Shown: positions 31,632 through 64,000, counted from the stretch's first letter. The stretch is 64,000 bases of DNA from Escherichia coli (GCF_001677475.2 NZ_CP015229.1), one strand, 5' to 3'. Translations and numbers: made by a program. Notes: a model not told the origin generated them from the letters alone.

Positions 31632-32027
31632 CTAGGTAACTTTTTGTTGTGCTGCTAGCCACCTTGCAACTATACGATCCATTGTCTCTTTTTTTTCCTT
31701 CATATCTTTAAGTATTTGCTGTTGATCTTCCTCTGGAAATGCCTCAAATGTTTGAAGTAGCTCCTTTTGCTTAGGAGATATTTTTAATATATCCTGTGTT
31801 TTGTCTTCTTTTTCTTCATTTAATGGTAAGAAAAACCAATGTTGGGGAAAACCCGTTACTTCAGATAGTTTATCTAGATTAGCTGCTGTAGGGCTTGATA
31901 TACCACAAACCCACCTTTGGACGGATTGTTGAGCAATACCAATTCTGCGCGCAAGCTCTGCTTGACTCCAGCCTTTTTCTAATAGAAGCATCTTAATTCT
32001 AAGAGCACTAATTTCGAGTACGCCCAT
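31632..32027 (-). CDS. paaR: PaaR-like XRE-HTH regulator
   Basis: 131 aa with the HTH LLEKGWSQAELARRIGIAQQSVQRW. It is the first gene of the three-gene module. Confidence 0.75.
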   Translation of the reverse strand: MGVLEISALRIKMLLLEKGWSQAELARRIGIAQQSVQRWVCGISSPTAANLDKLSEVTGFPQHWFFLPLNEEKEDKTQDILKISPKQKELLQTFEAFPEEDQQQILKDMKEKKETMDRIVARWLAAQQKVT

Positions 32028-41639: not shown

Positions 41640-42353
41640 ATGGCTGTTGTCTGTTCAGTTATCATGGTTTGCTCCCCAATTAATATTTTTCTTGAAAAGG
41701 ATAAGTTGTCACTTAAGCCCGGCTCAGTCGTTCTGGCCACCAAATGCATCAGGGAGCTGTTCCTTATGCATTATGGCAAAGTTAAAATTGTCGATATAAA
41801 CCATTCCATAGTAAGTCAATATCTGGAAAGTCAGCATAAGCTGACGAGGACTCGTCTGACTGACATTCCGCTTTACCTGTTCCTGGAACCCAACAATCCT
41901 GCGTTGGCTGCGGCTTTAATTACCAGCCAGAGATTTTACGGAGATACCACGGATATGTTTCTTATGATGGCCTGCCTGTCGCTGTTTGAATCAGATGAAC
42001 GGATGTCATTATTTTTAAGTGGATGTTTATCCAGTATAAGTGCCAAAGTCAGAGCGATAATTCAAACAGATATATCTGCAAACTGGATGCTCGGTGCGAT
42101 TGCGTTACGCCTGCATATGAGTGAGAGTTTGTTAAAGATAAAACTGAAAAATGAAGGGCATATGTTCAGTCGCTTGTTGCTGGAAGAGCGGATGCGGGTT
42201 GCTGTAAATATGTTATGTTCCCGGGATGGGTATGGACAGACAGTGGCAGAAAAATGCGGTTATTCAAGTAGGTCCTATTTTATCTCTGTATTTCACCGCT
42301 ATTATGGCTTCCCGCCAGACAGATATGTATCTATGCAAGGGCTTGATTTTTGA
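41640..42353 (+). CDS. AraC-family transcriptional regulator (prophage moron; Psr/PatE-like)
   Basis: 237 aa in a low-GC segment. The C-terminal AraC HTH pair reads MSESLLKIKLKNEGHMFSRLLLEERM...AEKCGYSSRSYFISVFHRYYGFPP. Confidence 0.8.
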   Translation: MAVVCSVIMVCSPINIFLEKDKLSLKPGSVVLATKCIRELFLMHYGKVKIVDINHSIVSQYLESQHKLTRTRLTDIPLYLFLEPNNPALAAALITSQRFYGDTTDMFLMMACLSLFESDERMSLFLSGCLSSISAKVRAIIQTDISANWMLGAIALRLHMSESLLKIKLKNEGHMFSRLLLEERMRVAVNMLCSRDGYGQTVAEKCGYSSRSYFISVFHRYYGFPPDRYVSMQGLDF

Positions 42354-42379: not shown

Positions 42380-42455
42380 GGCCCTTTAGCTCAGTGGTGA
42401 GAGCGAGCGACTCATAATCGCCAGGTCGCTGGTTCAAATCCAGCAAGGGCCACCA
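42380..42455 (+). tRNA. ileZ: tRNA with CAU anticodon (ileZ-type Ile2/Met-like)
   Basis: 76 nt. The acceptor is GGCCCTT/AAGGGCC, the anticodon loop is CTCATAA, the T loop is GGTTCAAATCC, and CCA is encoded. Confidence 0.85.
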
Positions 42456-42460
42456 CCTTA

Positions 42461-42541
42461 CCGCCATTAGCTCATCGGGAAGAGCAAATGACATGATAAC
42501 AGGGTTGTTGGTGCGGGGTTCGAGTCCTCGATGGCGGTCCA
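42461..42541 (+). tRNA. tRNA-like gene with aberrant anticodon arm (possible pseudo-tRNA)
   Basis: 81 nt. The acceptor (CCGCCAT/ATGGCGG), D arm (GCTC..GAGC), T arm (CGGGG-TTCGAGT-CCTCG) and CCA are all good. The anticodon region folds only as a wobble-rich stem with an 11-nt loop. Confidence 0.5.
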
Positions 42542-42554
42542 TTATCTGCATCAT

Positions 42555-42631
42555 GCGTTGTTAGCTCAGTCGGACAGAGCAATTGCCTTCTAAGCAATCG
42601 GTCACTGGTTCGAATCCAGTACAACGCGCCA
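42555..42631 (+). tRNA. argO: tRNA-Arg(UCU)
   Basis: 77 nt. The acceptor is GCGTTGT/ACAACGC, the anticodon loop is CTTCTAA, and CCA is encoded. Confidence 0.88.
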
Positions 42632-44707: not shown

Positions 44708-45058
44708 ATGCCATCACGAATCCCACGCGCCTGCCGTAAGCGTGGATGTGCAGGTACAACCACAGACAGTTCTGGTTACTGCGATAAACATCGTGGCGAA
44801 GGATGGGTACAGCATCAACGCGGACTGAGCCGCCACCAGCGTGGCTATGGCTCGAAATGGGATGCCATACGTGCGCGCATACTGAAGCGTGATAATCATC
44901 TGTGTCAGAACTGCCTGCGCAATGGGAGAGCCGTTGAAGCCAGAACTGTGGACCACATCATTCCGAAAGCTCATGGTGGCACGGATGCAGACAGTAACCT
45001 GCAGAGTCTGTGCTGGCCCTGTCATAAAGCAAAAACAGCGCGCGAACGCATCAATTGA
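44708..45058 (+). CDS. HNH endonuclease (packaging-associated)
   Basis: 116 aa with DHIIPKAHGG...N...CWPCHKAKT. It lies directly upstream of terS. Confidence 0.85.
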   Translation: MPSRIPRACRKRGCAGTTTDSSGYCDKHRGEGWVQHQRGLSRHQRGYGSKWDAIRARILKRDNHLCQNCLRNGRAVEARTVDHIIPKAHGGTDADSNLQSLCWPCHKAKTARERIN

Positions 45059-45206: not shown

Positions 45207-45689
45207 ATGTCAGGACCTCCGAAAACCCCGCCACGCCTGCATTTGATACGAGGCAACCCCTCAAAGCGCCCCGTTAAAGACCACAAAAAAACCGCTAAAA
45301 AGGATGAAAAAGGTCTTCCTAAAATTCCGCAGCATTTAGGGGCTCAGGGGAAGTACTGGTTCAGGCGAATGGCGGAAGAGCTGAATGCGGAAGGGATCAT
45401 TTCTCAGCTTGATGCGCGTGCACTCGAGTTGCTGGTGGAAGCCTACACCGAATATCGGCATCACTGCGAAACACTCGATGTTGAGGGGTATACCTACCGC
45501 ACGGAAACGCAGAGCGGTGATGTACTGATTAAGGCGCACCCCGCGGCGGCAATGAAAGCGGATGCCTGGAAGCGGATCCGGGCAATGCTTGCAGAGTTTG
45601 GTATGTCACCGGCAAGCCGGGCTAAAGTAAATATCGCCGGACCGGATGATGTTGATCCGCTGGCGGAGCTTTTAAAAGCGAGAGACTGA
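45207..45689 (+). CDS. terS: terminase small subunit (P27-type)
   Basis: 160 aa, upstream of and overlapping the terL start. It is homologous in its C-terminal half to the satellite TerS. Confidence 0.8.
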   Translation: MSGPPKTPPRLHLIRGNPSKRPVKDHKKTAKKDEKGLPKIPQHLGAQGKYWFRRMAEELNAEGIISQLDARALELLVEAYTEYRHHCETLDVEGYTYRTETQSGDVLIKAHPAAAMKADAWKRIRAMLAEFGMSPASRAKVNIAGPDDVDPLAELLKARD

Positions 45690-46716
45690 TGGCAAAAGTG
45701 GCTGACGGGATCCGCTACGCCGAACGTGTTGTTGCAGGAGAAATTGTTGCTGGCGAATTTGTCCGCCTGGCCTGCCAGCGTTTTCTTGATGATCTGAAGT
45801 ACGGCGAAGAGCGGGGGATTTATTTCAGTGAACCCCGTGCGCAGCACATCCTGAATTTCTACAAATTTGTGCCTCATGTAAAAGGGGCGCTGGCAGGCCA
45901 GCCCATTGAGTTGATGGACTGGCATGTATTTATTCTCATTAATATTTTTGGTTTTGTCATTCCGCTGGTCAATGAAGAGACCGGGGAAGTTGTCATGCGC
46001 AGCGATGGCAGTGGACGTCCGGTGATGGTGCGCCGGTTCCGGACGGCGTACAACGAAGTCGCTCGTAAAAACGCAAAATCAACTCTGTCATCGGGTATCG
46101 GCCTGTATATGACGGGGGCAGATGGTGAAGGCGGAGCTGAGGTGTATTCAGCCGCAACCACGCGTGACCAGGCCAGAATCGTGTTTGAAGACGCCAAAAA
46201 TATGGTCAGAAAAGCCCGGTCGACACTCGGGCGGTTGTTTGATTTCAACAAGCTGGCGATTTACCAGGAGCAGAGCGCATCAAAATTTGAACCGCTTTCT
46301 TCGGATGCAAACAACCTAGACGGTCTGAACATCCACTGCGCCATTATTGATGAGCTGCATGCACATAAAACCCGCGACGTGTGGGACGTTCTGGAAACGG
46401 CAACCGGTGCCCGTCTGCAGTCCCTGTTATTTGGTATCACCACGGCGGGCTTTAACAAGGAAGGGATTTGTTACGAGCAACGCGATTACGCCATCAAGGT
46501 ATTGCGAGGCTATAACAGCGACGTGGAGGGCGCGGTAAAAGACGACTCCTACTTTGCGATTATTTACACGCTCGATGAGGGAGATGATCCGTTTGATGAA
46601 ACGGTCTGGCAGAAAGCGAATCCGGGCCTGGGCATCTGTAAACGCTGGGATGATCTGCGTCGTCTGGCGAAAAAAGCGAAGGAGCAGGTCTCGGCGCGGG
46701 TGAATTTTTTCACGAA
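45689..46716 (+). pseudogene. terL: prophage terminase large subunit, 5' (ATPase) fragment, interrupted by satellite
   Basis: The fragment aligns with the satellite TerL up to ...RVNFFTK. The frame then reads 55 unrelated codons of island DNA. Confidence 0.88.
46710..46716. repeat. satellite attL core TCACGAA
   Basis: The same 7-mer occurs at 62119-62125, with 12/14 identity when extended (AATTTTTTCACGAA vs AATATTCTCACGAA). Confidence 0.75.
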
Positions 46717-46845
46717 GAAAGTAACATCACGCCGTAACAACAGTGCAGTCTGTCCTGATTTTTTTAGTAACCAAATGAAAGAAAAAGATTTTTTCTTGTT
46801 CGTCGTTTTTGTTTTTTCTGGATGGTTCTGGCTGTTTTCATCATT

Positions 46846-46868
46846 TGTGTATTGCACTGTGTATTGCA
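46846..46868 (+). repeat. tandem TGTGTATTGCA x2 (putative integrase arm-type sites, left end)
   Basis: Copies lie at 46846-46856 and 46858-46868. A similar pair, GTGTATTGC x2, lies at 62023-62043 with the same 12-nt register. Confidence 0.6.
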
Positions 46869-46887
46869 AAAACGGGTTATAAATCAC

Positions 46888-48111
46888 ATGGCGCTAAACA
46901 AACTGAGCGATAAAAAACTTCGTTCCCTGCTTGGACGCAGGAGTGAGAGACAGGAAACCATCGCTGATGGTAACGGGCTTTCGGTACGGGTCAGTAAATA
47001 CGGATGTGTTAGTTTTGTTTTCTTTTACAGACTGGCGGGAAGGGGAACCGCGCCCATCTGGCTGACACTTGGAAAATATCCTGATCTGAGTCTCAAATCA
47101 GCGAGAGAGATGCGCGATCAGTGTCGAACCTGGCTTGCGGAGGGCAGAGATCCACGGATTCAGATAAAAATTGAACGGGAAGCCACCTTGCAACCTGTTA
47201 CCGTTCGTGAGGCACTTGAATACTGGCTTGATAATTATGCAATGGATAAGCGTAGGGGAGCAGAACATATCAGGCAGTGCTTTGGTAAACATATTTATCC
47301 GGTGATTGGTCATGTACCACTTAGTGATTGCTCTATATCTATGTGGATTAAGTGTTTTGACAAAATAAAAAAAGTAGCACCTGTACAGGCCGGAGCTTTG
47401 TTGCGTATATCAAAACAGGCGCTTAAATTTTGTAGGGTAAGAAAATACGCGATTAGTCATGAAATTGATGATCTTGAGGTCTGTGATGTGGGAAAAAAGT
47501 CTGCGCGAAGAAGCAGGGTTTTAACAGATGATGAAATCAGAGATTTATGGCGAAGTATTAATACTGATTATGACAATCACGAATTATCATATGAAAACCG
47601 AATTATTTTACGTTTCCTGGTAGTTTTTGGTTGCCGACTGTCAGAAGTATTACTGTCGTCCTGGGGAGAGTGGGATTTTGATAAGAAATTATGGCGCGTT
47701 CCCGCTGAACATAGCAAAAATGGCAGGGAAATAATCAGACCGATTCCTGATGGCATGTTTAACTGGTTAGTTACGTTAAAAAAAATAACAGGTAACAAAG
47801 AAAATGTGATTGGGTTTGATATGCGTCAGTGTACGGCAAGCGTAACTATCGGTAAGACATGGAAAAGGATGAAACACTCGGAGAAATGGACGGCGCATGA
47901 TATGCGAAGAGTGTTTGCCACAAAACTAAGTGATCATGGTTTTGAACATAATGTGGTTGAACAGTTGCTTGGGCACACATTAGGCGGTGTTGCCGGGGTT
48001 TATAACAGAAGCCAGTATATGGACAGAAAAAAAGAAGCTATGAACTGGTGGTACGACTATCTGAATAAGCAAATTAGTGGTGACGGTAATGATTCAAATA
48101 GTTACGCGTGA
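46888..48111 (+). CDS. int: P4-type tyrosine integrase of the satellite
   Basis: 407 aa from MALNKLSDKKLRSLLG. The C-terminal catalytic region reads GCRLSEVL...HDMRRVFATKL...LGHTLGGVAGVYNR. Confidence 0.88.
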   Translation: MALNKLSDKKLRSLLGRRSERQETIADGNGLSVRVSKYGCVSFVFFYRLAGRGTAPIWLTLGKYPDLSLKSAREMRDQCRTWLAEGRDPRIQIKIEREATLQPVTVREALEYWLDNYAMDKRRGAEHIRQCFGKHIYPVIGHVPLSDCSISMWIKCFDKIKKVAPVQAGALLRISKQALKFCRVRKYAISHEIDDLEVCDVGKKSARRSRVLTDDEIRDLWRSINTDYDNHELSYENRIILRFLVVFGCRLSEVLLSSWGEWDFDKKLWRVPAEHSKNGREIIRPIPDGMFNWLVTLKKITGNKENVIGFDMRQCTASVTIGKTWKRMKHSEKWTAHDMRRVFATKLSDHGFEHNVVEQLLGHTLGGVAGVYNRSQYMDRKKEAMNWWYDYLNKQISGDGNDSNSYA

Positions 48112-48310
48112 AGAACTTGAAAATGATAAAACAATCGACAGGATGATTAAGGAAGATGAATGTGCATGGTTAACCGCTCTTGGCAGGAGACACAGATCGT
48201 TACTTGAAAAGGAAGGAAAATTTCCACGAAAAATATGTATTGGTCCACAAACAAAAGTCTGGCGCTTATCTGAGGTGCTGGAATGGGTAAAAGGTGAATG
48301 GAAACCCTGA
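48089..48310 (+). CDS. alpA: AlpA-family HTH regulator/excisionase 1
   Basis: RMIKEDECAWLTALGRRHRSLLEKEGKFPRKICIGPQTKVWRLSEVLEWV fits the AlpA pattern. The start is uncertain (48077, 48089 or 48143). Confidence 0.7.
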   Translation: MIQIVTREELENDKTIDRMIKEDECAWLTALGRRHRSLLEKEGKFPRKICIGPQTKVWRLSEVLEWVKGEWKP

Positions 48311-48373
48311 GCTAAATTAAATGAGATATAATCAACCCGTCTTTTGGCGGGTTTTTTTATAGGTGATATTTTT

Positions 48374-48652
48374 ATGCAAAAATTTATTTATCCTACACCC
48401 GAAGAACGCATTCAGATTCTGAAAGATCATGGCGAACCGTATGATCGCCGTATACGCGAACATGAGTGTGCCAATCGTACCGGGCTTTCAAGAAGCAGAC
48501 GTTGGGTACTTGAACAGGAGGGAGCATTTCCTGCTCGTGCTCATTTAGGGAAAGTGTCTGTTTCCTGGTTGCTCTCTGATGTGCTCTGGTGGGTTATGCA
48601 TCCGCCAGGAGTAAAGGAAGTAAACAGCCCATACAAAAACGCCAATAAGTAA
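48374..48652 (+). CDS. AlpA-family HTH regulator 2
   Basis: 92 aa with IREHECANRTGLSRSRRWVLEQEGAFPARAHLGKVSVSWLLSDVLWWV. Confidence 0.7.
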   Translation: MQKFIYPTPEERIQILKDHGEPYDRRIREHECANRTGLSRSRRWVLEQEGAFPARAHLGKVSVSWLLSDVLWWVMHPPGVKEVNSPYKNANK

Positions 48653-48662
48653 TTACCGACAA

Positions 48663-48690
48663 CCCCGCACCACGCAATGCGGGGTTTTTT
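48663..48690 (+). terminator. rho-independent terminator
   Basis: CCCCGCA-CCACGCAA-TGCGGGG-T6. Confidence 0.8.
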
Positions 48691-48709
48691 GTATGTGAGG
48701 TAGAAAGTG

Positions 48710-49303
48710 ATGAATAAAAATATTGCCGTGACGGGCAAGGGTGACGCACGTCATGTGAAAAAATTCTGTGATATTCGTGATCTGGTCGTTCTGCGCTTTG
48801 ATAGTGTGAACGTTCGCGTGGTGTATCTGAACGGCGATCCGTGGTTTGTTGGCGCTGATGTGTGTGCGGCGCTGGAAATTAGCAACGTTACCGATGCTGT
48901 TTCAGTTCTGGATAACGATGAGGTAATGACCCTAGCTTTAACCGAGGGTCATTCAGGTAAGCGTGGTGGTGCCAGAAGTTGGAATGTTGTATCAGAATCA
49001 GGTTTTTACAAGTTGATCGCCAGAAGTCGCAAAGCTGTTAATCCTGGCACGTTCGCCCATCGTTTCAGTAATTGGGTATTCAGAAATGTGATACCGGGTA
49101 TCAGAAAAACGGGGGCTTATGGTATCCCGTGGGGCGCATTACAGGATTTTTCCCGCCGCAAAGAGCAATATCAGGTAAGTGCCAGCGAGAAGGGGAGGGA
49201 GCTACAGGCATGTAAGCGCAAAAAGCGTGAGCTAGAGGAAGAAGAAAAAAGGCTGATACGTGAATATCAGCCTGAGTTTTACTTTGGTGAGCGTATTCAG
49301 TAA
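48710..49303 (+). CDS. BRO-N domain (antirepressor-like) protein
   Basis: 197 aa with VRVVYLNGDPWFVGADVCAALEISN...SESGFYKLIARSRKA...FSNWVFRNVIPGIRKTGAY. Confidence 0.75.
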   Translation: MNKNIAVTGKGDARHVKKFCDIRDLVVLRFDSVNVRVVYLNGDPWFVGADVCAALEISNVTDAVSVLDNDEVMTLALTEGHSGKRGGARSWNVVSESGFYKLIARSRKAVNPGTFAHRFSNWVFRNVIPGIRKTGAYGIPWGALQDFSRRKEQYQVSASEKGRELQACKRKKRELEEEEKRLIREYQPEFYFGERIQ

Positions 49304-49461
49304 CCACACGCGGTGCTGATTATACGGTACATCGTGTTAACCGAGAAGCTACCCACCAGCAAGGCAAAATCTTCTGCTAAAAAATGACATATGGCCAGTC
49401 GTCTGGAAAGCATGAAATTTTACAAAAATGGAAAATGAAGATTTTTATTGTGCTGGTGGGT

Positions 49462-49492
49462 AAAAACAAAAAGCGCCCCGTTGCCGGAGCGC
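49462..49492 (-). terminator. minus-strand rho-independent terminator
   Basis: The minus strand reads GCGCTCCG-GCAA-CGGGGCGC followed by TTTTTGTTTTT. Confidence 0.75.
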
Positions 49493-49588
49493 CCTTGCGA
49501 ACAATTAACCTACTGCGCAAAAAAATGAATCTGTGCAGGGGGATTATATCAACCGTGTGACGAAGCGCCACAATTGCCGGATAACAGG

Positions 49589-49617
49589 CAAAGAAAAGGC
49601 CACCCGCTACGGTGGCC
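49589..49617 (-). terminator. minus-strand terminator/attenuator
   Basis: The minus strand reads GGCCACC-GTAGCG-GGTGGCC followed by TTTTCTTTG. Confidence 0.6.
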
Positions 49618-55608: not shown

Positions 55609-56754
55609 ATGAAGAAATTAATCGAACTCCGCCAGCAAAAAACCGCCCTGAAAAACCAGATGCGATCCCTGCTGGAAAAAGCCGACAGTGAAAACCGCAG
55701 CCTGAACGATGACGAAGGCAAACAGTTTGATGAACTGCGTGCAAAAGCCGATTCCCTCGACACAGAAATCTCCCGTCTTGAAGCTGTTGCGGATGAAGAA
55801 CGTAACCAGCCAGGTGTTTGCGTCGAAGAGAAAATTACCAAAGACGAACTGCGCTCTTACATTCTGACCGGGGAAACCCGCAACCTGTCCGGCAGTGTTC
55901 CGGCTGATGGTGGTTATACGGTTATCCCGGAACTGAACAGAGAAATTATGCGTCAGCTTTCTGATGAATCGGTGATGCGTAAAATCTGTACTGTTAAAAC
56001 CATTCACAGCAATGAATTTAAGCAACTGGTTTCTGCCGGGGGCGCGGTCGTTGAACACGGTGAAGAAGGCACTACACGTAACCAGACGGCAACCCCAAAA
56101 CTGAATGAAGTCAGTATCCGCCTGTATCCGATCTACGCTTACCCGAAAACCACTCAGGAAATTATCGATTTTTCCGAAGTCGATATTATGGGCTGGTTAT
56201 CTTCTGAAATTGGCGACACTTTCGTTGATACCGAAGAAACGGATCTGGTTTCTGGTGATGGCGAGAAAAAAGCTAAAGGTTTCCTGGCTTTTCCGCGCAC
56301 TGAGGATAACGACAAAACCCGTCCTTTCGGTACGCTCCAGACGAAAAAAGTTACTGGCAGTCTTAGCGCCGACATGCTGATTGACCTGAAATTTACGCTG
56401 CGCAATAAGTACCGCAAAAAAGCTGTATGGGTGATGAACTCAAATACAGCCGCCTCCGCACAAAAACTGAAAAATGCCACTGGTGATTACATCTGGCGCG
56501 ATCGTTTACAGGCTGGTGATCCTGATTCTCTGCTGGGGCTTCCGGTTGAATATCTGGAATTTATGCCGGACGGTGTGATTGCAGTAGGTGACTTTAAGCG
56601 CGGTTATTTCATCGTTGACCATGAAACCGGTACGCGTACCCGTCCGGATTTCAGCGAACCTGGATTCATTAACATCTATACCCAGAAATATCTGGGCGGT
56701 GGTGTGGTGGATTCGAACGCCATCAAGATTCTGGAAATTCAGGCTGGCAAGTAA
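55609..56754 (+). CDS. HK97-family major capsid protein (with N-terminal delta/scaffold domain)
   Basis: 381 aa with an N-terminal coiled coil and then a capsid fold. The gene order capsid-protease-portal supports the call. Confidence 0.85.
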   Translation: MKKLIELRQQKTALKNQMRSLLEKADSENRSLNDDEGKQFDELRAKADSLDTEISRLEAVADEERNQPGVCVEEKITKDELRSYILTGETRNLSGSVPADGGYTVIPELNREIMRQLSDESVMRKICTVKTIHSNEFKQLVSAGGAVVEHGEEGTTRNQTATPKLNEVSIRLYPIYAYPKTTQEIIDFSEVDIMGWLSSEIGDTFVDTEETDLVSGDGEKKAKGFLAFPRTEDNDKTRPFGTLQTKKVTGSLSADMLIDLKFTLRNKYRKKAVWVMNSNTAASAQKLKNATGDYIWRDRLQAGDPDSLLGLPVEYLEFMPDGVIAVGDFKRGYFIVDHETGTRTRPDFSEPGFINIYTQKYLGGGVVDSNAIKILEIQAGK

Positions 56755-56760
56755 TGAGCA

Positions 56761-56785
56761 AAGGGGGCTTCGGCCTCCTTTTTCA
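56761..56785 (+). terminator. hairpin plus T-run after capsid gene (attenuator)
   Basis: AAGGGGGC-TTCG-GCCTCCTT followed by TTT. Confidence 0.55.
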
Positions 56786-56803
56786 GCTTTATGGAGTACA
56801 CCG

Positions 56804-57364
56804 ATGAAAAACACCGATTTTGAAATCCGTACATCTGAACTGACCGCCAGCGATAAAAAACTGGTGGGTTATGCCGTTCGCTGGAACAGCCTTTCAGAAA
56901 TTATTTGGGACGAATTCCGCGAACAGTTCACGCCGGGGGCTTTTGCTGACTATCTGGCGGCGGGTAATGATGTGCGCTGCCTGTATGAGCATGACTATAC
57001 CCGACTGCTGGGGCGCACCAAATCCGGAACACTGGTACTGACTGAGGACAACACCGGGCTACGTTTTGAACTGACACCGCCTGATACCCAGCTTGGAAAA
57101 GATGTGCTTACGCTGGTGGAGCGTGGCGACATTACAGGAATGAGCTTTGGCTTTCGCGCATTATGCGAAGAGTGGAATATCGCGCAAAAACCGTATCTGC
57201 GCACTGTTACCGCCGCAGAACTCCGTGAAATCACGATAACGTCGATGCCTGCTTATCCCGAATCTGGCGTGGAGATTGCCCACCGTTCGTTGTTTGCACA
57301 GCACCCTGAATTACGCCCGGCAGGAAATAATCGTCATCGCTGGGCTGAACTGGCGGGGTTGTGA
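56804..57364 (+). CDS. HK97-family prohead protease
   Basis: 186 aa from MKNTDFEIRTSELTASDKKLVGYAVRWNS...YEHD...GMSFGF. Confidence 0.85.
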   Translation: MKNTDFEIRTSELTASDKKLVGYAVRWNSLSEIIWDEFREQFTPGAFADYLAAGNDVRCLYEHDYTRLLGRTKSGTLVLTEDNTGLRFELTPPDTQLGKDVLTLVERGDITGMSFGFRALCEEWNIAQKPYLRTVTAAELREITITSMPAYPESGVEIAHRSLFAQHPELRPAGNNRHRWAELAGL

Positions 57365-57365
57365 T

Positions 57366-58580
57366 ATGTGGTGGCCTTTTAGTCGTAAAAAAAGCGATCT
57401 GCGTAACCTGTCCATTGATGATTTTCTGGCGCTGTCCGGCGTACCGAATACCGGATCCGGAGAATATGTTTCTGCCGGGACGGCTGAATCATTGCCTGCT
57501 GTGATGAACGCGGTTTCTGTCATCGCTGAGGCGGTGGCCACGATGCCGTGTTATCTGTATCTGGTACGCAATGATAAGGGCAGGGAGGCGCGGGAGTGGC
57601 TGGACAGTCATCCGGTCGATATTCTGCTGAATGAGCAGCCTAATTCGTGCCAGACACCTTACCAGTTTAAACGCACAATGATGCGTCACTGCCTGCTGAA
57701 CGGTAACGCCTATGCGGTTATTGAGTGGGGGCGGGACGGTCAGCCAAAATCACTTCATCCTTATGCGCCGGGGTGTGTTGTACCGGAACGCACTGGCGCG
57801 CACAAATACCGCTATACCATCACCGAACCCTATACAGGAACGGTGCGCACGTATTTACAGGAAGAAGTCCTGCATCTCCGCTATGCCTCGGATGATGGCT
57901 TTCTGGGACGTTCCCCCGTCACGATTTGCCGTGAGGCGCTGGGGCTTGGCCTTGCTCAACAGCGTCACGGAGCCAGCATTATGAAAGATGGCATGATGGC
58001 GGCAGGGATTATCACGTCAGGCGAATGGCTGGACGGTGTGAAAGGTAAACAGGCATTAGACGCCCTGGAACGCTACAAGGGGGCGAAAAATGCCGGAAAA
58101 ACGCCAATCCTTGAAGGGGGCATGGATTACAAGCAACTGGGGATGAGTAACCAGGATGCGGAATGGCTGGCCTCCCGTCGCTTCTCCATTGAAGACATCG
58201 CCCGGATGTTCAACGTGTCGCCGATTTTTCTTCAGGAATACAGCAACAGCACCTACAGCAATTTCAGTGAGGCAAGCCGCGCGTTTCTGACCATGACAAT
58301 GCGCCCATGGCTGGCGAACTTCGAACAGCAAATTAAGGCCGCTTTGCTGGTGGCTTCTCCCGTACCTGGTACCCGTTATCTGGTTGAGTTTGATTCAGCC
58401 GATTTACTGCGCGCTACTCCAACCGAGCGTTACGCCACGTATGAGAAAGGGATTAAGAACGGGATCATGAATCCGAACGAAGCCCGCGAACGTGAGGGGA
58501 TGCCGCCGCGTGAAGGTGGCGACGAATTCAGCCAGGCATGGAAGCAGACGGTGGAAATTAAAGGTGAAAAAGATGAGTGA
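57366..58580 (+). CDS. HK97-family portal protein
   Basis: 404 aa from MWWPFSRKKS. It is homologous to the prophage portal at 63049. Confidence 0.85.
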   Translation: MWWPFSRKKSDLRNLSIDDFLALSGVPNTGSGEYVSAGTAESLPAVMNAVSVIAEAVATMPCYLYLVRNDKGREAREWLDSHPVDILLNEQPNSCQTPYQFKRTMMRHCLLNGNAYAVIEWGRDGQPKSLHPYAPGCVVPERTGAHKYRYTITEPYTGTVRTYLQEEVLHLRYASDDGFLGRSPVTICREALGLGLAQQRHGASIMKDGMMAAGIITSGEWLDGVKGKQALDALERYKGAKNAGKTPILEGGMDYKQLGMSNQDAEWLASRRFSIEDIARMFNVSPIFLQEYSNSTYSNFSEASRAFLTMTMRPWLANFEQQIKAALLVASPVPGTRYLVEFDSADLLRATPTERYATYEKGIKNGIMNPNEAREREGMPPREGGDEFSQAWKQTVEIKGEKDE

Positions 58581-58872
58581 AGAAAAAATTACACCTGATG
58601 AAGTCAGGGCACATCTTCGCCTTGATGACTTTTCCGGAGAGGGCGAACTTCTGAAAATGTATACCGATGCGGCGCTGGAAGCCTGCCAGAAGCATATCGG
58701 GAAACGTTTTGAAGACGGCCTGGAATTTACCCCGGCAATACGTGTTGGTTGCCTGATGTACATTGCTTTCCTGTACGAGAACAGGGAAGCGGTTTCACCT
58801 GTGGAGCAGTCTGAACTGCCTATGGCTATTTCTGCGCTCTGGTCGGTTTATCGTGATGTGGGGGTGTACTGA
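58573..58872 (+). CDS. gp6-like head-tail connector
   Basis: 99 aa from MSEEKITPDEVRAHLRLDD. Confidence 0.7.
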   Translation: MSEEKITPDEVRAHLRLDDFSGEGELLKMYTDAALEACQKHIGKRFEDGLEFTPAIRVGCLMYIAFLYENREAVSPVEQSELPMAISALWSVYRDVGVY

Positions 58873-59312
58873 TGCCGTGGCAACCATTAAGGCGATGCAC
58901 TGAGCCGGGCTGTAATAAGCGCGTGAAGTCCGGCAAGTGTGAAGAGCACAGGCGGGCTGCATGGCGTGCAGAGGATGCCAGACGGGGACACCGCCGCGCG
59001 CGCGGGTATTCCCGACAGTGGGACAAATACCGCGCCCTGTACCTGAGCAAAAACCCGTTATGCGTGCGTTGTCTGGCTAAGGGGATTTATACGCCAGCTC
59101 TTGTGGTGGATCACATCATTCCCATCAATGGCGGCGGTGATGTTCTCTTCTGGCCTGAGTGGAACCACCAGGCATTGTGCCAGACGTGCCACAACCGTAA
59201 GACGACACGGGAAGACCCAGCCACGAAAGCGAACCGTAAGGCGGGCATGTATCGCGAGCAGGAAGAACGGGCGGCACACCGTAACGACTGGATGTATGGC
59301 GATGATGACTGA
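58872..59312 (+). CDS. HNH endonuclease (packaging-associated)
   Basis: 146 aa with CVRC...DHIIPINGGG...CQTCHNRKT. Confidence 0.85.
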   Translation: MPWQPLRRCTEPGCNKRVKSGKCEEHRRAAWRAEDARRGHRRARGYSRQWDKYRALYLSKNPLCVRCLAKGIYTPALVVDHIIPINGGGDVLFWPEWNHQALCQTCHNRKTTREDPATKANRKAGMYREQEERAAHRNDWMYGDDD

Positions 59313-59600
59313 ACATGAGCAAAACAGGCTGATACGTGGACTGATAAGGCAACGTGACTTATGGAAGACACAGGAGACAGGGCACAAAGCCAACAGGACA
59401 GGGCGCACAGAACGCACCACAGCGAAGCGATTAACCGACCGTGACCGCGAGGTCATGGAATGTTTTCGCAATCGCTGGTGAGGCTGTCAGAGGGGGTGGG
59501 GGAGGTTTTCAGGACGAAACCGTCCCTGCCGGACACCGACCGCCTCCTCAAATTTTTGTGCACGGTAATTTTTTTGAAAATAATTGGGCGAAAAAAGAAC

Positions 59601-59957
59601 ATGGCAAGACCACCAAAAGCCCCCGCTTACCTGGATGAAATCGCGGTCAGGCAGTGGAAGGAAAAATCGCGCCAGCTTTCCGTGCGGGAAGACCTTACCC
59701 CCGCCGACTGGAGCAATCTGGAACTGTATTGTGTTAACTACTCCATATACCGCAAAGCCGTCGAAGACCTTGCGACGCGCGGGTTCAGCATTGTTAACAG
59801 TCAGGGCAGCGAGAGCAGAAACCCCGCCCTGAGCGCAAAGGCTGACGCGGAAAGAATAATGATCAAAATGGCTTCTTTGCTGGGTTTTGACCCGGTAAGC
59901 CGCCGCAGAAATCCACCGGAAACAGAGGAAGAGGACGAGCTTGACCGCCTGGCATGA
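59601..59957 (+). CDS. terS: terminase small subunit (P27-type)
   Basis: 118 aa from MARPPKAPAYLDEIAVRQW. Confidence 0.8.
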   Translation: MARPPKAPAYLDEIAVRQWKEKSRQLSVREDLTPADWSNLELYCVNYSIYRKAVEDLATRGFSIVNSQGSESRNPALSAKADAERIMIKMASLLGFDPVSRRRNPPETEEEDELDRLA

Positions 59958-61602
59958 GTACGCAGAAGGCGTAAAAAACGGCAAAATTACGGCCTGTAAA
60001 CGACTGAAACAGGCCGTTAAACGGTATTTTTCTGACCTTGAAAACCCCCTTTACACGTTCGAGCCGGAGGTCGTGGAGCGGTTTATTGCCTTTTCCAGGG
60101 TGTGTCCGCACGTAAAAGGCGCAATGCGCGGTAGCCCCATTGAGCTGGAGCCGTGGCAGCAGTTCGCCTTTGCGTGCATCCTGGGCTTTAAGGTTAAGGC
60201 CACCGGACGGCGCAAATACACCAGCGCATTCATTGAAGTACCGCGTAAAAATGCCAAATCCACGGTCGCCGCTATCCTGGCTAACTGGTTTCTGGTTATG
60301 GAAAACGGGCAGCAGGATATTTACACCGCCGCCGTGAGTCGTGATCAGGCGCGGATCGTGTTTGATGATGCGCGTCAGATGTGCCTTTTATCCCGACCGT
60401 TACGAAAGCGGGTAAATATTCAGGCACACAAGGTGATACACCCGAAAACCAACAGCCTGTTAAAGCCACTGGCAGCAAAAGCGGCAACCATTGAAGGTAC
60501 AAACCCGAGTCTTGCTATTGTGGATGAATATCACCTGCACCCTGACAACGGGGTTTATTCCGCGCTTGAACTGGGAATGGGGGCGCGTCCGGAGGGGTTA
60601 TTATTTGCCATCACCACATCGGGGAGCAACGTTGTTTCAGCCTGTAAACAACACTACGACTATTGCTGCCAGATACTGGATGGTGAAGAGGTGAACGAAT
60701 CCATGTTCGTGCTGATTTACGAGCTGGATGATGAAAGCGAGGTTGACGATCCGGCGATGTGGATAAAGGCGAATCCCAATATCGATGTTTCCGTCGATCG
60801 TGAAAAACTGGCCTCAACCATCCAGAAAGCGCGGGGTATTCCGTCGCAGTGGGTGGAGATGCTCACCAAGCGATTCAATATCTGGTGTCAGGGGGCTACG
60901 CCGTGGATGGGTAACGGTGCATGGGCGGAGTGCGCCGGAACGTTCGCGGAGGCGGATTTATACGGGCAGGAGTGCTACGCGGGGCTGGACTTATCATCAA
61001 CCAGCGATATTTCCAGCGTGTGCTATGCCTTTCCGGTCGGTAAAAAGATTATGCTGGTTTCCCGTCACTATCTGCCGGAATTTCAGCTACAGAACCCCGC
61101 CAATAAAAACCGCGCCATCTATCGCCAGTGGGTAAAGGCGGGCTGGATACGCACAACACCGGGTGACTGCATTGATTATGACCGTATCCGTGATGACATC
61201 ATGGCGGATGCAGAGAATTTCAATATCAGGCTGGTGGGCTTCGATACATGGAACGCCACGCACCTGAGGACGCAGCTACAGGGCGCAGGATTTGAGGTGG
61301 AGCCGTTCCCGCAAACATACCTTCGTTTCAGTCCGGCGGCGAAATCGTTCGAAGTTTTTGTTAACCGGAAGGTGATTGTGCATCGTGGTGATCCGGTGCT
61401 GGCCTGGTCAATGAGTAATGTTGTGATGCAGAGTGACGCGAACGCCAATATCAAGCCGAACAAGAAAAAATCATCCAACAAGATAGACCCGAGCGTTGCG
61501 GCGCTGATGGCGTTTGGCACATTCCAGGCAGAGCATGAGGAATTTGCATTCGATATGAGCGACAGCCACAAAGAGCGGCTTGCGGCGTTTGATGGTGTGT
61601 AA
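59941..61602 (+). CDS. terL: terminase large subunit (intact, satellite copy)
   Basis: 553 aa, colinear with both fragments of the prophage terL. Confidence 0.88.
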   Translation: MTAWHEYAEGVKNGKITACKRLKQAVKRYFSDLENPLYTFEPEVVERFIAFSRVCPHVKGAMRGSPIELEPWQQFAFACILGFKVKATGRRKYTSAFIEVPRKNAKSTVAAILANWFLVMENGQQDIYTAAVSRDQARIVFDDARQMCLLSRPLRKRVNIQAHKVIHPKTNSLLKPLAAKAATIEGTNPSLAIVDEYHLHPDNGVYSALELGMGARPEGLLFAITTSGSNVVSACKQHYDYCCQILDGEEVNESMFVLIYELDDESEVDDPAMWIKANPNIDVSVDREKLASTIQKARGIPSQWVEMLTKRFNIWCQGATPWMGNGAWAECAGTFAEADLYGQECYAGLDLSSTSDISSVCYAFPVGKKIMLVSRHYLPEFQLQNPANKNRAIYRQWVKAGWIRTTPGDCIDYDRIRDDIMADAENFNIRLVGFDTWNATHLRTQLQGAGFEVEPFPQTYLRFSPAAKSFEVFVNRKVIVHRGDPVLAWSMSNVVMQSDANANIKPNKKKSSNKIDPSVAALMAFGTFQAEHEEFAFDMSDSHKERLAAFDGV

Positions 61603-61682
61603 CGGAATGGATGAGAGAGGACAATGCTCATTTAATGGAATAAATTTTCAGTATTACCGGCACCCACTTTCAGGGATGTTTT

Positions 61683-61838
61683 TGCGGGTTATTTGAGGGG
61701 TGTTTGCGGGTTATTTTGAATGTCTTGCGGGTTACATTCTGGCTGATATTTAAATACGTTGTTTTTTTAACGTATTGATATTAAAGAGTAAAAGATAATT
61801 AGCACGCGAAGATAACCCGCTAACCCGCATAACCCGCA
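61683..61838. repeat. TGCGGGTTA array: 3 direct (21-22 nt phasing) plus 3 inverted tandem copies around an AT-rich palindrome
   Basis: Direct copies lie at 61683, 61705 and 61726. Inverted TAACCCGC copies lie at 61813, 61821 and 61830. The palindrome AATACGTT-N8-AACGTATT lies at 61752-61776. Confidence 0.85.
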
Positions 61839-62022
61839 CTGTTTTGTATATATATACGAAAAATTGCATTCAGGGGGGATCGAAATTTCTACTGCCTCTT
61901 ATCTCTTTGAGTGCTCACCTCGTCAGATTGTTACACACAAGAAATAAAAAATGCTTCGCGATGGTAGGTCGAATCACTGTATCAAAAAACGGTGTGTATC
62001 AGCATTAAAACAATACAGATAC

Positions 62023-62043
62023 GTGTATTGCGCTGTGTATTGC
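62023..62043 (+). repeat. tandem GTGTATTGC x2 (putative integrase arm sites, right end)
   Basis: This pair matches the left-end pair at 46846-46868. Confidence 0.6.
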
Positions 62044-62118
62044 TCGATGATTTATAAAGACTGTTTTTTCATGTTAAACGATTGATATACAGACGATTTT
62101 AAAAAGCTTGAAATATTC

Positions 62119-62125
62119 TCACGAA
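62119..62125. repeat. satellite attR core TCACGAA
   Basis: See the attL core. Confidence 0.75.
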
Positions 62126-62855
62126 ACACATGAATGTGTGGGTCACTGCCGAATCGGCCTGGATGGACATGATTAAGTGGGAGAAGTGCGAATACATCGC
62201 TCCACAGCATGAGCTGAAAACGTATCCCATGTGGGTCGGCGTCGACCTTGCACATAAGATTGATATCTGTGCGGCGGCAAAACTCTGGCGAACGGATAAC
62301 GGGCATGTTCATGCCGATTTTAAATTCTGGCTTCCGGAAGGGCGACTGGAACGGTGTTCACGGCAGCAGGCAGAACTTTACCGGAAGTGGGCGGAGATGG
62401 ATAAGCTCATCCTGACGGATGGTGATGTTATCGATCATGCTCAGATAAAAAGTGACTTACTGGAATGGATTGGTGGTGAAAACCTCAGGGAACTGGGATT
62501 TGACCCGTGGAGCGCGATGCAGTTCAGCCTGGCACTGGCTGAAGAAGGGATACCGCTGGTGGAGGTTCCGCAGACGGTCCGCAATCTGTCAGAGGCCATG
62601 AAGGAAACGGAATCACTGGTCTATGCCGGACGTTTCCACCACAGCAATCACCCGGTCATGAACTGGATGATGTCTAACGTTACGGTGAAACCGGACAAAA
62701 ACGACAATATCTTCCCGAATAAATCCACGCCGGAAGCCAAAATCGACGGCCCTGTTGCGATGTTTACAGCAATGAGCCGGATGCTGGTCAATGGCGGTGA
62801 ACCGGAGCCGGATCTGTCTGAACACCTGATCAGTGTTGGTATCCGCTCGCTTTAA
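62126..62855 (+). pseudogene. terL: prophage terminase large subunit, 3' (nuclease) fragment
   Basis: HMNVWVTAESAWMDMIKWEKC... aligns with satellite TerL FNIWCQGATPWMGNGAWAEC. The fragment is in frame with the 5' fragment when joined at the core. Confidence 0.88.
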
Positions 62856-62866
62856 CTGAGGGCATT

Positions 62867-63049
62867 ATGTTTCTGATAATTCTCACGCCACTGGTGGGCG
62901 TGCTGGGGGCGCTTTTGCTGTCGTATGGCACATGGCTGATTTATCCCCCGGCAGGTTTTGTTGTTGCCGGGGGGCTGTGCCTGTGCTGGTCGTGGCTGGT
63001 TGCGCGATATCTCGACCGTACACAGCCGTCTGTCGGCGGAGGTAAATAG
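62867..63049 (+). CDS. small two-TM membrane protein
   Basis: 60 aa, hydrophobic, between terL and portal. Confidence 0.5.
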
Positions 63050-64000
63050 TGTTCTTTTCGGGATTATTTCAACGAAAAAGTGACGCGCCGGTGACCACGC
63101 CAGCAGAGCTGGCGGATGCCATCGGGTTGTCCTACGACACCTATACCGGAAAGCAGATCAGCAGTCAGCGGGCCATGCGACTGACGGCGGTGTATTCCTG
63201 TGTCAGGGTGCTGGCTGAGTCTGTTGGTATGCTGCCCTGCAGTCTCTACAAAATCAGCGGCACCCTTAAAACACGGGCGGTGGATGAACGACTGCATAAG
63301 CTGGTTTCGGCAAAACCTAATGGCTACATGACGCCGCAGGAATTCTGGGAACTGGTCATTGTCTGCCTGTGTCTGCGGGGGAATTTTTACGCCTACAAGG
63401 TAAAGGCACTGGGGGAAGTGGTGGAGCTTCTCCCGATAGATCCGGGCTGTGTGGAACCGAAGCTGAACAGCCAGTGGCAGCCGGTTTATCAGGTGACGTT
63501 TCCGGATGGTTCCGTGGATGTGTTGACCCAGGATGAAATCTGGCATGTGCGCACCCTGACGCTGGATGGACTTGTCGGTCTGAATCCCATTGCGTATGCG
63601 CGTGAGGCCATTTCACTGGCAGCGGCAACCGAGGAGCACGGCGCCAGGCTGTTTGGTAACGGCGCTGTGACATCCGGTGTGTTGCGTACAGAACAAAAGC
63701 TCACGCCGGATGCTTATGAGCGCATGAAGAGGGATTTTGAGGAGCGTCATCTTGGGCTGGGTAATGCGCACCGTCCGATGATTCTGGAAATGGGGCTGGA
63801 CTGGAAGCCGGTGGCACTGAATGCCGAGGACAGCCAGTTCCTGGAAACCCGCAAGTTTCAGCTGGAAGAAATCTGTCGCCTGTTCCGCGTTCCGCTGCAT
63901 ATGGTGCAGAACACTGATCGCGCCACCTTCAACAATATTGAAGAGCTGGGGCTTGGCTTCATTAACTATTCCCTTGTGCCGTATCTGACCCGTATTGAAC
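63049..64000 (+). CDS. prophage HK97-family portal protein (runs off right edge)
   Basis: The GTG overlaps the previous stop. The product [15 protein letters not shown]...AMRLTAVYSCVRVLAESVGMLPCSLY is colinear with the satellite portal. It is not in the track because it is open-ended. Confidence 0.8.
   Translation, partial: MFFSGLFQRKSDAPVTTPAELADAIGLSYDTYTGKQISSQRAMRLTAVYSCVRVLAESVGMLPCSLYKISGTLKTRAVDERLHKLVSAKPNGYMTPQEFWELVIVCLCLRGNFYAYKVKALGEVVELLPIDPGCVEPKLNSQWQPVYQVTFPDGSVDVLTQDEIWHVRTLTLDGLVGLNPIAYAREAISLAAATEEHGARLFGNGAVTSGVLRTEQKLTPDAYERMKRDFEERHLGLGNAHRPMILEMGLDWKPVALNAEDSQFLETRKFQLEEICRLFRVPLHMVQNTDRATFNNIEELGLGFINYSLVPYLTRIE

Follow-up and report, generated by a model that had tools for sequence, protein, structure and literature searches.

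Helper-embedded phage-inducible chromosomal islands (HE-PICIs) were described by Tommasini, Mageeney and Williams in 2023 from 14 sites within prophage genes that are cognate to lambda late genes (PMC10111431). Insertions by their integrase clade are always co-oriented, and attP brings no replacement sequence (PMC10111431). A doubled tgTGTATTGCantgTGTATTGCa motif, with copies at fixed distances from the attP centre (132±2 bp downstream and 81±2 bp upstream), was reported to be unique to these islands (PMC10111431). The founding and sole experimentally studied member, 11capE (Eco567.11.E_Phage_cap_E_80), excised precisely after its composite had been induced, excised and replicated, which restored the late gene, as followed by quantitative PCR and deep sequencing (PMC10111431). 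The capsid-forming PICI (cf-PICI) EcCIEDL933 makes its own small capsids, packages only itself, requires helper tails and is induced in an alpA-dependent manner (bioRxiv 10.1101/2022.09.08.507074). Here we analyze a stretch of 64,000 nucleotides from Escherichia coli (GCF_001677475.2 NZ_CP015229.1), hereafter the window, in which an element at 46717-62125 interrupts the large terminase gene (terL) of a lambdoid prophage. With a probability of roughly 85%, we read this element as a helper-embedded, capsid-forming PICI of the published site group A:Terminase_1:246 that carries an EcCIEDL933-type late module and has a proposed helper-coupled life cycle.

The site group A_Terminase_1_246 comprises islands of 15-16 kb from E. 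coli and E. albertii with the attachment (att) identity ‘tcacgaa’ or ‘ttaccaa’ (PMC10111431). Its members Eco15324.15, Eco11232.16 and Eal51.16 occupy the same prophage-terL target codons as our element (PMC10111431), and the likeness extends to the att identity ‘tcacgaa’ and the almost identical flanks of attL and attR (Supplementary Files 1, 3 and 4, PMC10111431), the doubled TGTATTGC motif, the size of 15-16 kb, the host genus and, for some listed helpers, a location at tRNA-Ser (PMC10111431). There are also differences. The element is a new mosaic, at most 80% covered by any complete E. coli genome, its replicase is of the RepA/AAA_25 type where most relatives have DUF927, and the group was not described as capsid-forming in PMC10111431. 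By its attL and attR, the element falls into one of the 14 published site groups, and unbroken attB in related genomes shows its att sites to be exact. The features that define the insertion are as follows.

45689 to 46716, + strand: helper terL, 5' part, with the ATPase domain and the first ~60 nuclease residues (Pfam TerL_ATPase; TerL_nuclease profile positions 2-64)
46710 to 46716, + strand: attL core TCACGAA, a 7-bp crossover or identity block, the same as the ‘tcacgaa’ att identity of A_Terminase_1_246 HE-PICIs (PMC10111431 supplement)
46846 to 46868, + strand: doubled motif TGTGTATTGCAcTGTGTATTGCA, downstream copy in attP and candidate arm-type site for the integrase, beginning 133 bp from the core centre
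62022 to 62044, + strand: doubled motif cgTGTATTGCgctgTGTATTGCt, upstream copy in attP, at a distance of 78-100 bp from the core centre according to the reference point chosen
62119 to 62125, + strand: attR core TCACGAA, with a flank that fits the published A_Terminase_1_246 attR alignment (PMC10111431)
62126 to 62855, + strand: helper terL, 3' part, with the remaining nuclease domain (Pfam TerL_nuclease profile positions 64-283), continuing the frame of the 5' part

A preliminary description of this DNA had delimited a 15,409-bp unit by TCACGAA direct repeats, and the unit between these cores is indeed discrete. The 7-mer by itself is not significant (11 occurrences in the window against 9.3 expected), so the case for the boundaries is settled by the flanks. 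Rejoining 45689-46716 to 62126-62855 gives a single open frame for a complete TerL of 585 amino acids. This protein matches TerL of Escherichia phage phi467 from end to end at 99.5% identity. Among 5,426 complete E. coli genomes, 905 contain an unbroken match to a 503-nt probe for the rejoined junction, and the terL site is likewise intact in phi467 and other isolated phages. The whole probe for the occupied attL junction matches in 35 complete E. coli genomes; among those listed with an empty site, its match ends at probe position 294-300, precisely the 7-mer. Since the two probes matched equal numbers of records (935 each), the left end of the element lies at no other site in the collection. 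All 18 of the 18 IMG/VR loci with an integrase at least 93% identical share the terL junction, and in both collections (complete E. coli genomes and IMG/VR) the integrase end is seen at no junction but this one. Near-identical junctions across many unrelated strains and E. albertii imply recent mobility. The proposed search for empty and other occupied sites bore out the boundaries, and the possibility that related phages carry these 15 kb as an integral part of terL-less genomes did not materialize, as many phages and prophages have an intact terL.

The doubled TGTATTGC motif lies at both ends of the element, in the positions expected for HE-PICIs. It is also found in a related locus of strain 2014C-3075 (L001), and an exact-pattern search of three chromosomal cf-PICIs (L002-L004, including the EcCIEDL933-type island) gave no match. 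After excision, the satellite attP is expected to read …AATATTC-TCACGAA-GAAAGTAAC… and the repaired terL …AATTTTT-TCACGAA-ACACATG…. The circular attP junction (GAAATATTCTYACSAAGAAAGTAACATCAC), sought in IMG/VR as a sign of an excised or packaged form, had no match there; the IMG/VR loci recovered by integrase are all in the integrated attL state.

The helper terL is split at codon 343, near position ~64 of the TerL_nuclease profile and after the 178-position ATPase profile. Both parts of the gene, int, alpA and the replicase gene are all on the + strand, and the element is oriented like the prophage late operon, 5.6 kb downstream of the antiterminator gene Q. Because it carries no substitute for the 3' part of terL, no full-length helper TerL is available while it is integrated. 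The earlier view that the insertion cripples the prophage is too strong, given the precise excision of 11capE and a junction that restores terL in frame. By analogy with 11capE, the damage is probably reversible by excision. The terL of the satellite itself (60838-60903) has TCACCAA at the codons homologous to attB, one mismatch from TCACGAA and a mixture of the published core alleles TCACGAA and TTACCAA; the differences between the two attB alleles are confined to synonymous positions of F-T-K. We considered whether the satellite might target its own terL, but the flanks of TCACCAA are strongly different, and self-insertion seems unlikely.

The second line of evidence is the late module, which consists of the following features.

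55609 to 56754, + strand: HK97-fold major capsid protein (Pfam Phage_capsid, E 3e-60; 75% identity to EcCIEDL933)
56804 to 57364, + strand: prohead serine protease (Pfam Peptidase_S78, E 3e-45; 63% identity to EcCIEDL933)
57366 to 58580, + strand: portal protein (Pfam Phage_portal, E 6.5e-93; 81% identity to EcCIEDL933, 31% to the helper)
58573 to 58872, + strand: head-tail adaptor (gp6-like, Ad1), the sole connector gene (TIGR01560, E 1.1e-19; phrog_40 ‘head-tail adaptor Ad1’), 58% identical to the EcCIEDL933 adaptor
58872 to 59312, + strand: HNH endonuclease of the packaging module (Pfam HNH; 84% identity to EcCIEDL933)
59296 to 59481, + strand: small conserved open reading frame (ORF) between HNH and terS (82% amino acid identity to the EcCIEDL933 ORF at the same position)
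59601 to 59957, + strand: small terminase, P27/Terminase_4 type (Pfam Terminase_4, E 5e-23; 88% identity to EcCIEDL933)
59941 to 61602, + strand: large terminase of the element (Pfam TerL_ATPase and TerL_nuclease; 93% identity to EcCIEDL933, 32% to helper TerL)

The late block aligns with a 15.4-kb island between roxA and phoQ of O157:H7 strains at 81% nucleotide identity over 95%. The same protein accessions are found in strain EDL933 itself, and as the roxA-phoQ island fits the published description of EcCIEDL933, we took it as the prototype cf-PICI. The earlier assignment of the element as cf-PICI-like is well supported by this comparison, with late proteins 58-93% identical, the same 15.4-kb size and a shared gene order both at the front (int, alpA, Icd-like, DUF4222, replicase, SSB, PerC) and in the late block (capsid, protease, portal, connector, HNH, small ORF, TerS, TerL). 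EcCIEDL933 differs in its location, which is chromosomal (between roxA and phoQ) instead of within a prophage, and has one alpA, a DUF927-type replicase, an integrase 43% identical to that of the element, and a head-closure gene between portal and adaptor that the element lacks. The 15,409 bp fall within the ~10-18 kb of cf-PICIs. The element further combines an end-located integrase, AlpA regulators and its own replication module (AAA_25 replicase, iterons and SSB) with homology to an experimentally characterized member and its own intact capsid, protease, portal, HNH, TerS and TerL genes. Of the two head-tail joining genes in EcCIEDL933, it has the adaptor alone; SatelliteFinder accepts cf-PICIs with 9-10 of 11 components.

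The preliminary description had called this head and packaging block complete. All of the genes that it named are present and full length against their homologues, with the lengths of their EcCIEDL933 counterparts and Pfam matches above curated cut-offs, and the head genes are not frameshifted pseudogenes. “Complete” goes too far in one respect, as a tblastn search with two head-closure proteins found no match anywhere in the window. A missing head-closure gene might have been a hallmark of embedding, but we rejected this idea, since chromosomal islands of cf-PICI content at ygaZ/proX and cspD/clpS also have a one-connector late module, which is therefore a common subtype and not a result of embedding. 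The absence of tail and lysis genes from the unit was upheld by a PHROGs scan of its six remaining ORFs of unknown function, which found no tail or lysis families; the small ORF 59296-59481 was compared with EcCIEDL933 only. That the element takes only tails from a helper is uncertain, because it lacks a head-closure gene. The helper type, as seen in strains 2014C-3075 and AH19B041, encodes one, and borrowing beyond tails is possible. The element capsid protein is 35% identical to the capsid of the related helper prophage of strain 2014C-3075 (L001). The interval with the small ORF is 95% conserved among four cf-PICIs, and the cos region is likely to follow this ORF. When the element was used to search phage records, only distant matches were found, with 75% identity to the capsid-portal block. 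One record that matches this block at 75% nucleotide identity is LR881103.1 (Escherichia phage vB_KppS-Ant, 16,548 bp, ‘induced prophage’), probably a packaged cf-PICI deposited as a phage.

Upstream of the late module, the gene order of the element follows the four zones described for Gram-negative PICIs. The P4-type integrase, two AlpA genes, BRO-N protein and divergent switch noted earlier were recovered with Pfam and NCBIfam (the switch gene is of the YlcI/YnfO family), as were the two Icd-like genes, RepA-like ATPase with iterons, SSB and PerC with NCBIfam, Pfam, PHROGs and a repeat search.

46888 to 48111, + strand: tyrosine integrase, P4 type (Pfam Arm-DNA-bind_3 and Phage_integrase)
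48077 to 48310, + strand: AlpA-family regulator or excisionase 1 (Pfam Phage_AlpA, E 1.9e-9), with a terminator-like hairpin downstream at 48334-48353
48374 to 48652, + strand: AlpA-family regulator 2 (Pfam Phage_AlpA, E 5.6e-10), with a terminator-like hairpin downstream at 48661-48686
48710 to 49303, + strand: Bro-N domain protein (Pfam Bro-N, E 1.7e-16)
49916 to 50140, - strand: YlcI/YnfO-family small DNA-binding protein, repressor type (NCBIfam NF041551, E 6.4e-18), divergent from the Icd/replication operon
50355 to 50504, + strand: Icd-like protein 1 (NCBIfam phage_ICD_like, E 4.7e-20, on 50262-50504)
50652 to 50739, + strand: C4-family antisense or immunity RNA, P1 c4 / P4 CI type (Rfam RF01695, 72.3 bits; gathering score, 45)
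50746 to 50964, + strand: Icd-like protein 2 (NCBIfam phage_ICD_like, E 1.1e-14)
51631 to 51930, + strand: DUF4222 protein (Pfam DUF4222, E 6.5e-24; 77% identity to the EcCIEDL933 counterpart)
51927 to 53336, + strand: RepA-type AAA_25 ATPase, replication initiator or helicase (Pfam AAA_25, E 1.9e-43; phrog_2850 over its full length; helicase/primase PHROGs)
53332 to 53540, no strand: iteron cluster, putative origin (AAAAGTGGGG, at least 5 direct and 2-3 inverted copies, from the repeat search), directly after the ATPase gene
53787 to 54212, + strand: single-strand DNA-binding protein, SSB (Pfam SSB, E 2.9e-16)
54216 to 54509, + strand: PerC-family regulator (Pfam PerC, E 1e-35)
54841 to 55314, - strand: accessory gene, 157 amino acids, antisense to the rest of the element and of conserved length in Enterobacterales (52-63% identity)
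61682 to 61839, no strand: repeat cluster after the element terL, three direct TTGCGGGTTA and three inverted TAACCCGC copies flanking an AT-rich spacer

The integrase has 50% pairwise amino acid identity to that of 11capE and 43% to that of EcCIEDL933. The att sites match a group assigned to the HE-PICI clade by its authors, which implies that the integrase probably belongs there too. With 11capE the element also shares the order of zones. It differs in its target, which for 11capE is capsid gene E, and in its late genes, as 11capE has a capsid and a decoration gene only, with no terminase and with packaging by the helper presumed, while the element has a nearly complete head and packaging set. 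A promoter scan found back-to-back promoter-like sites at ~50132-50192 by the YlcI/YnfO gene, and the C4-family RNA is placed between the two Icd-like genes. Satellite P4 lacks capsid, portal and terminase genes and reshapes capsids built from the proteins of its helper P2; its integration site is a tRNA gene. The element resembles P4 as portrayed in PMC10111431 in its P4-type integrase with an arm-binding domain, AlpA/Vis-type regulator, C4/CI-type immunity RNA and Icd-like genes.

Past the junction, the frame of the truncated helper terL continues for 55 codons into the element, encoding a tail unrelated to TerL, and stops at 46880-46882, 5 nt before the int ATG; the same 5-nt gap is found in L001. 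We considered translational coupling of int to this truncated ORF as a selected feature. However, the spacing from the junction to the int ATG is 172 nt in 15 related loci and 173 nt in 4 (n = 19), and in 11capE the truncated ORF stops ~130 nt upstream of int, so the frame is not conserved and we do not propose coupling. The run of the frame up to the int start is probably incidental.

The DUF4222 gene is a conserved neighbor upstream of the replicase in E. coli PICIs, and the RepA-type replicase is unusual among relatives, which mostly have the DUF927 type. In EcCIEDL933 and other cf-PICIs, the 9-mer repeated after the element terL also forms a cluster, there directly behind the DUF927-type replicase gene; matching repeat clusters lie at L001 20639-20793, L003 17040-17185 and L004 17313-17457. 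The cluster after terL has been retained although the replicase and iterons of the element differ from the DUF927 type. It may serve as a second origin or for cross-talk, or may be left over from a module swap, and through this TGCGGGTTA cluster, DUF927-type replicases of co-resident PICIs could act on the element. The accessory ORF at 54841-55314 matched no family in Pfam, NCBIfam, PHROGs or PADLOC. Its structure model is all-alpha and confident (pLDDT 90), and a Foldseek comparison of the model with the PDB found no real neighbor. A homologue in Raoultella (L027 9001-9474) occupies the same slot of another int-AlpA satellite, where it abuts a Phage_portal_2 gene. The gene is a candidate for satellite cargo or a defense function.

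The prophage around the element is lambdoid and HK97-like. Positions 1-24000 of the window are E. coli core chromosome (~99% identity), and the prophage begins beside yccA. Its left arm carries an integrase, an exonuclease, a helix-turn-helix (HTH) repressor, a cro-like gene, YdaS/YdaT-type early genes, DUF968, RusA and the Q antiterminator, followed after Q by an AraC-family gene, two tRNA genes, holin, lysozyme, Rz, HNH, TerS and the split TerL. From int through terS, the helper genes that were examined are intact. Nesting in a prophage with homologous, diverged packaging genes had been noted before and is confirmed here, as the HNH, TerS, TerL and portal proteins of the element and of the prophage share only 27-41% amino acid identity.

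44708 to 45058, + strand: helper HNH endonuclease (Pfam HNH, E 1.9e-16; 41% amino acid identity to the element HNH)
45207 to 45689, + strand: helper small terminase, P27/Terminase_4 type (Pfam Terminase_4, E 2.3e-25; 27% amino acid identity to the element TerS)
63049 to 64000, + strand: helper portal gene, cut by the window end (from its translation; 31% amino acid identity to the element portal)

A related composite is present in strain AH19B041, again at the yccA/tRNA-Ser locus. Its split terL is followed by portal, protease, capsid, adaptor, head-closure, gp10 and gp17, and then by a full siphovirus tail module that extends through J protein and tail fibre. In strain 2014C-3075, the interrupted prophage is an Stx1d phage. 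In Shiga-toxin phages, stx sits between Q and the lysis genes. The helper in our window has the AraC-family regulator gene (41640-42353) and the two tRNA genes (42380-42628) at this place. The counterpart in AH19B041 of the candidate helper repressor is annotated ‘LexA family’.

The helper-coupled life cycle that we propose is drawn from the 11capE and EcCIEDL933 experiments and from lambdoid biology. Upon induction, the whole composite would be excised and replicated. Late transcription, antiterminated by Q, would cross the lysis genes, HNH, terS and the 5' part of terL and so reach int and alpA of the satellite. Q-modified transcription is terminator-resistant, and simple consensus scans found no promoter-like or terminator-like sites between the terL junction and int. 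Int and AlpA would then excise the satellite precisely, restoring the helper terL, and the satellite would replicate from its own RepA/iteron origin. Small HK97-fold capsids would be built from the capsid protein, protease, portal and adaptor of the satellite, and the 15.4-kb genome packaged by its HNH, TerS and TerL. Tails would come from the helper, probably along with the missing head-closure protein, and the particles would be released by the helper holin, lysozyme and Rz.

Several points weigh against this account. The window stops within the helper portal gene, so that the prophage tail genes lie past its end. At E <= 0.001, the candidate helper repressor (31632-32027, - strand; 131 amino acids) matches solely HTH families and no S24 peptidase domain, and SOS inducibility is uncertain. 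The case for read-through into int consists only of orientation and the simple consensus scans. Infective particles could not be recovered from the 11capE composite (PMC10111431). Every tested gene of the EcCIEDL933 packaging module but 1792 was needed for transfer (bioRxiv 10.1101/2022.09.08.507074), and the element has no head-closure gene. In EDL933 and GN02175, the resident prophages were poor cf-PICI inducers and provided no compatible tails (bioRxiv 10.1101/2022.09.08.507074). Since resident prophages fail EcCIEDL933 and EcCIGN02175, embedding is no proof that the surrounding prophage donates tails; it may be the actual tail donor. For the A:Terminase_1:246 site group, the mechanism would stand on analogy with other systems.

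The last of these observations lead to the rival that survives best, in which the prophage terL is a mere landing site, the inducer and tail donor are incoming or co-resident phages, and the surrounding prophage is a victim. The inefficient mobilization of cf-PICIs by the resident prophages of EDL933 and GN02175 fits this explanation, and so does the satellite adaptor, which has no similarity to the adaptor of the related helper in 2014C-3075 (blastp, E <= 1e-3), a comparison with a relative since the adaptor of the helper in our window lies past the window end. A mere landing site is less easily squared with an integrase clade that occupies 14 prophage late-gene sites, always co-oriented, which points to a functional link to the host prophage. 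Nor would it account for the excision of 11capE following induction of its own composite, or for the restriction of the integrase end to this terL junction in two collections. We regard this rival as unlikely.

Less probable still is a dead end, with the satellite, the prophage or both decaying, or with a permanent inactivation of the prophage as a domesticated lock that benefits the bacterium. Many HE-PICI helpers look truncated according to the authors (PMC10111431), the failure to obtain virions from the 11capE composite could be read in the same way, and just 35 of the ~934 genomes with this terL are occupied. Decay would nevertheless be difficult to reconcile with satellite genes that, where checked, are all intact and full length, with helper genes intact from int to terS, with perfect att cores and a terL that rejoins in frame, or with the recent mobility implied by near-identical junctions in unrelated strains and E. 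albertii. Finally, if the element were a phage-PICI hybrid or a small prophage, defective and lodged within a second one, this would explain the nearly full phage-derived head and packaging module, but it is hardly credible for a unit with the PICI layout (inward int, alpA, a Bro/immunity-RNA zone and a replicase with iterons), no tail or lysis genes, a conserved size of ~15 kb, and close kin in EcCIEDL933, an island with experimentally demonstrated helper dependence and small PICI-made capsids.

The nested layout is not in itself new. It was published in 2023 as the HE-PICI, the site group, att core and arm motif are all known, and the window adds one more mosaic copy and not a new principle. 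Our literature search, which did not extend to the table of six attB sites in the cf-PICI paper, found no paper linking cf-PICIs with helper embedding or terminase-site HE-PICIs with capsids, and this connection is the only, modestly, new point. There is also a parallel in the regulated gene integrity conferred by excisable elements, where a gene is interrupted without replacement and its expression returns after precise excision (discussed in PMC10111431). What is interrupted here is a gene of a second mobile element, and it is presumably the satellite, not the cell, that the switch serves.

Whether embedding of a capsid-forming satellite in terL is a functional “hostage” design, and not just an integration site, is a more speculative matter; we consider the design possible but would not bet on it. 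If it were true, the helper would make tails, proheads, head-completion proteins and lysis proteins, yet could not package its own DNA until the satellite exits, and a satellite with its own terminase needs exactly those helper products, including the head-closure protein. Exit of the satellite would become a checkpoint for helper maturation, and the element would be costly to its helper, unlike the ‘commensal’ EcCIEDL933. Satellites in helper late genes couple two mobile elements in cis, and a capsid-forming satellite in a terminase gene offers a clean natural test of cost versus neutrality to the helper. For genome annotation, the lesson is that paired ‘incomplete terminase’ pseudogenes in a prophage can signal an excisable satellite and not decay. 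As related interrupted prophages carry Shiga toxin genes (Stx1d in 2014C-3075), occupancy of terL could affect the production of toxin-converting phages.

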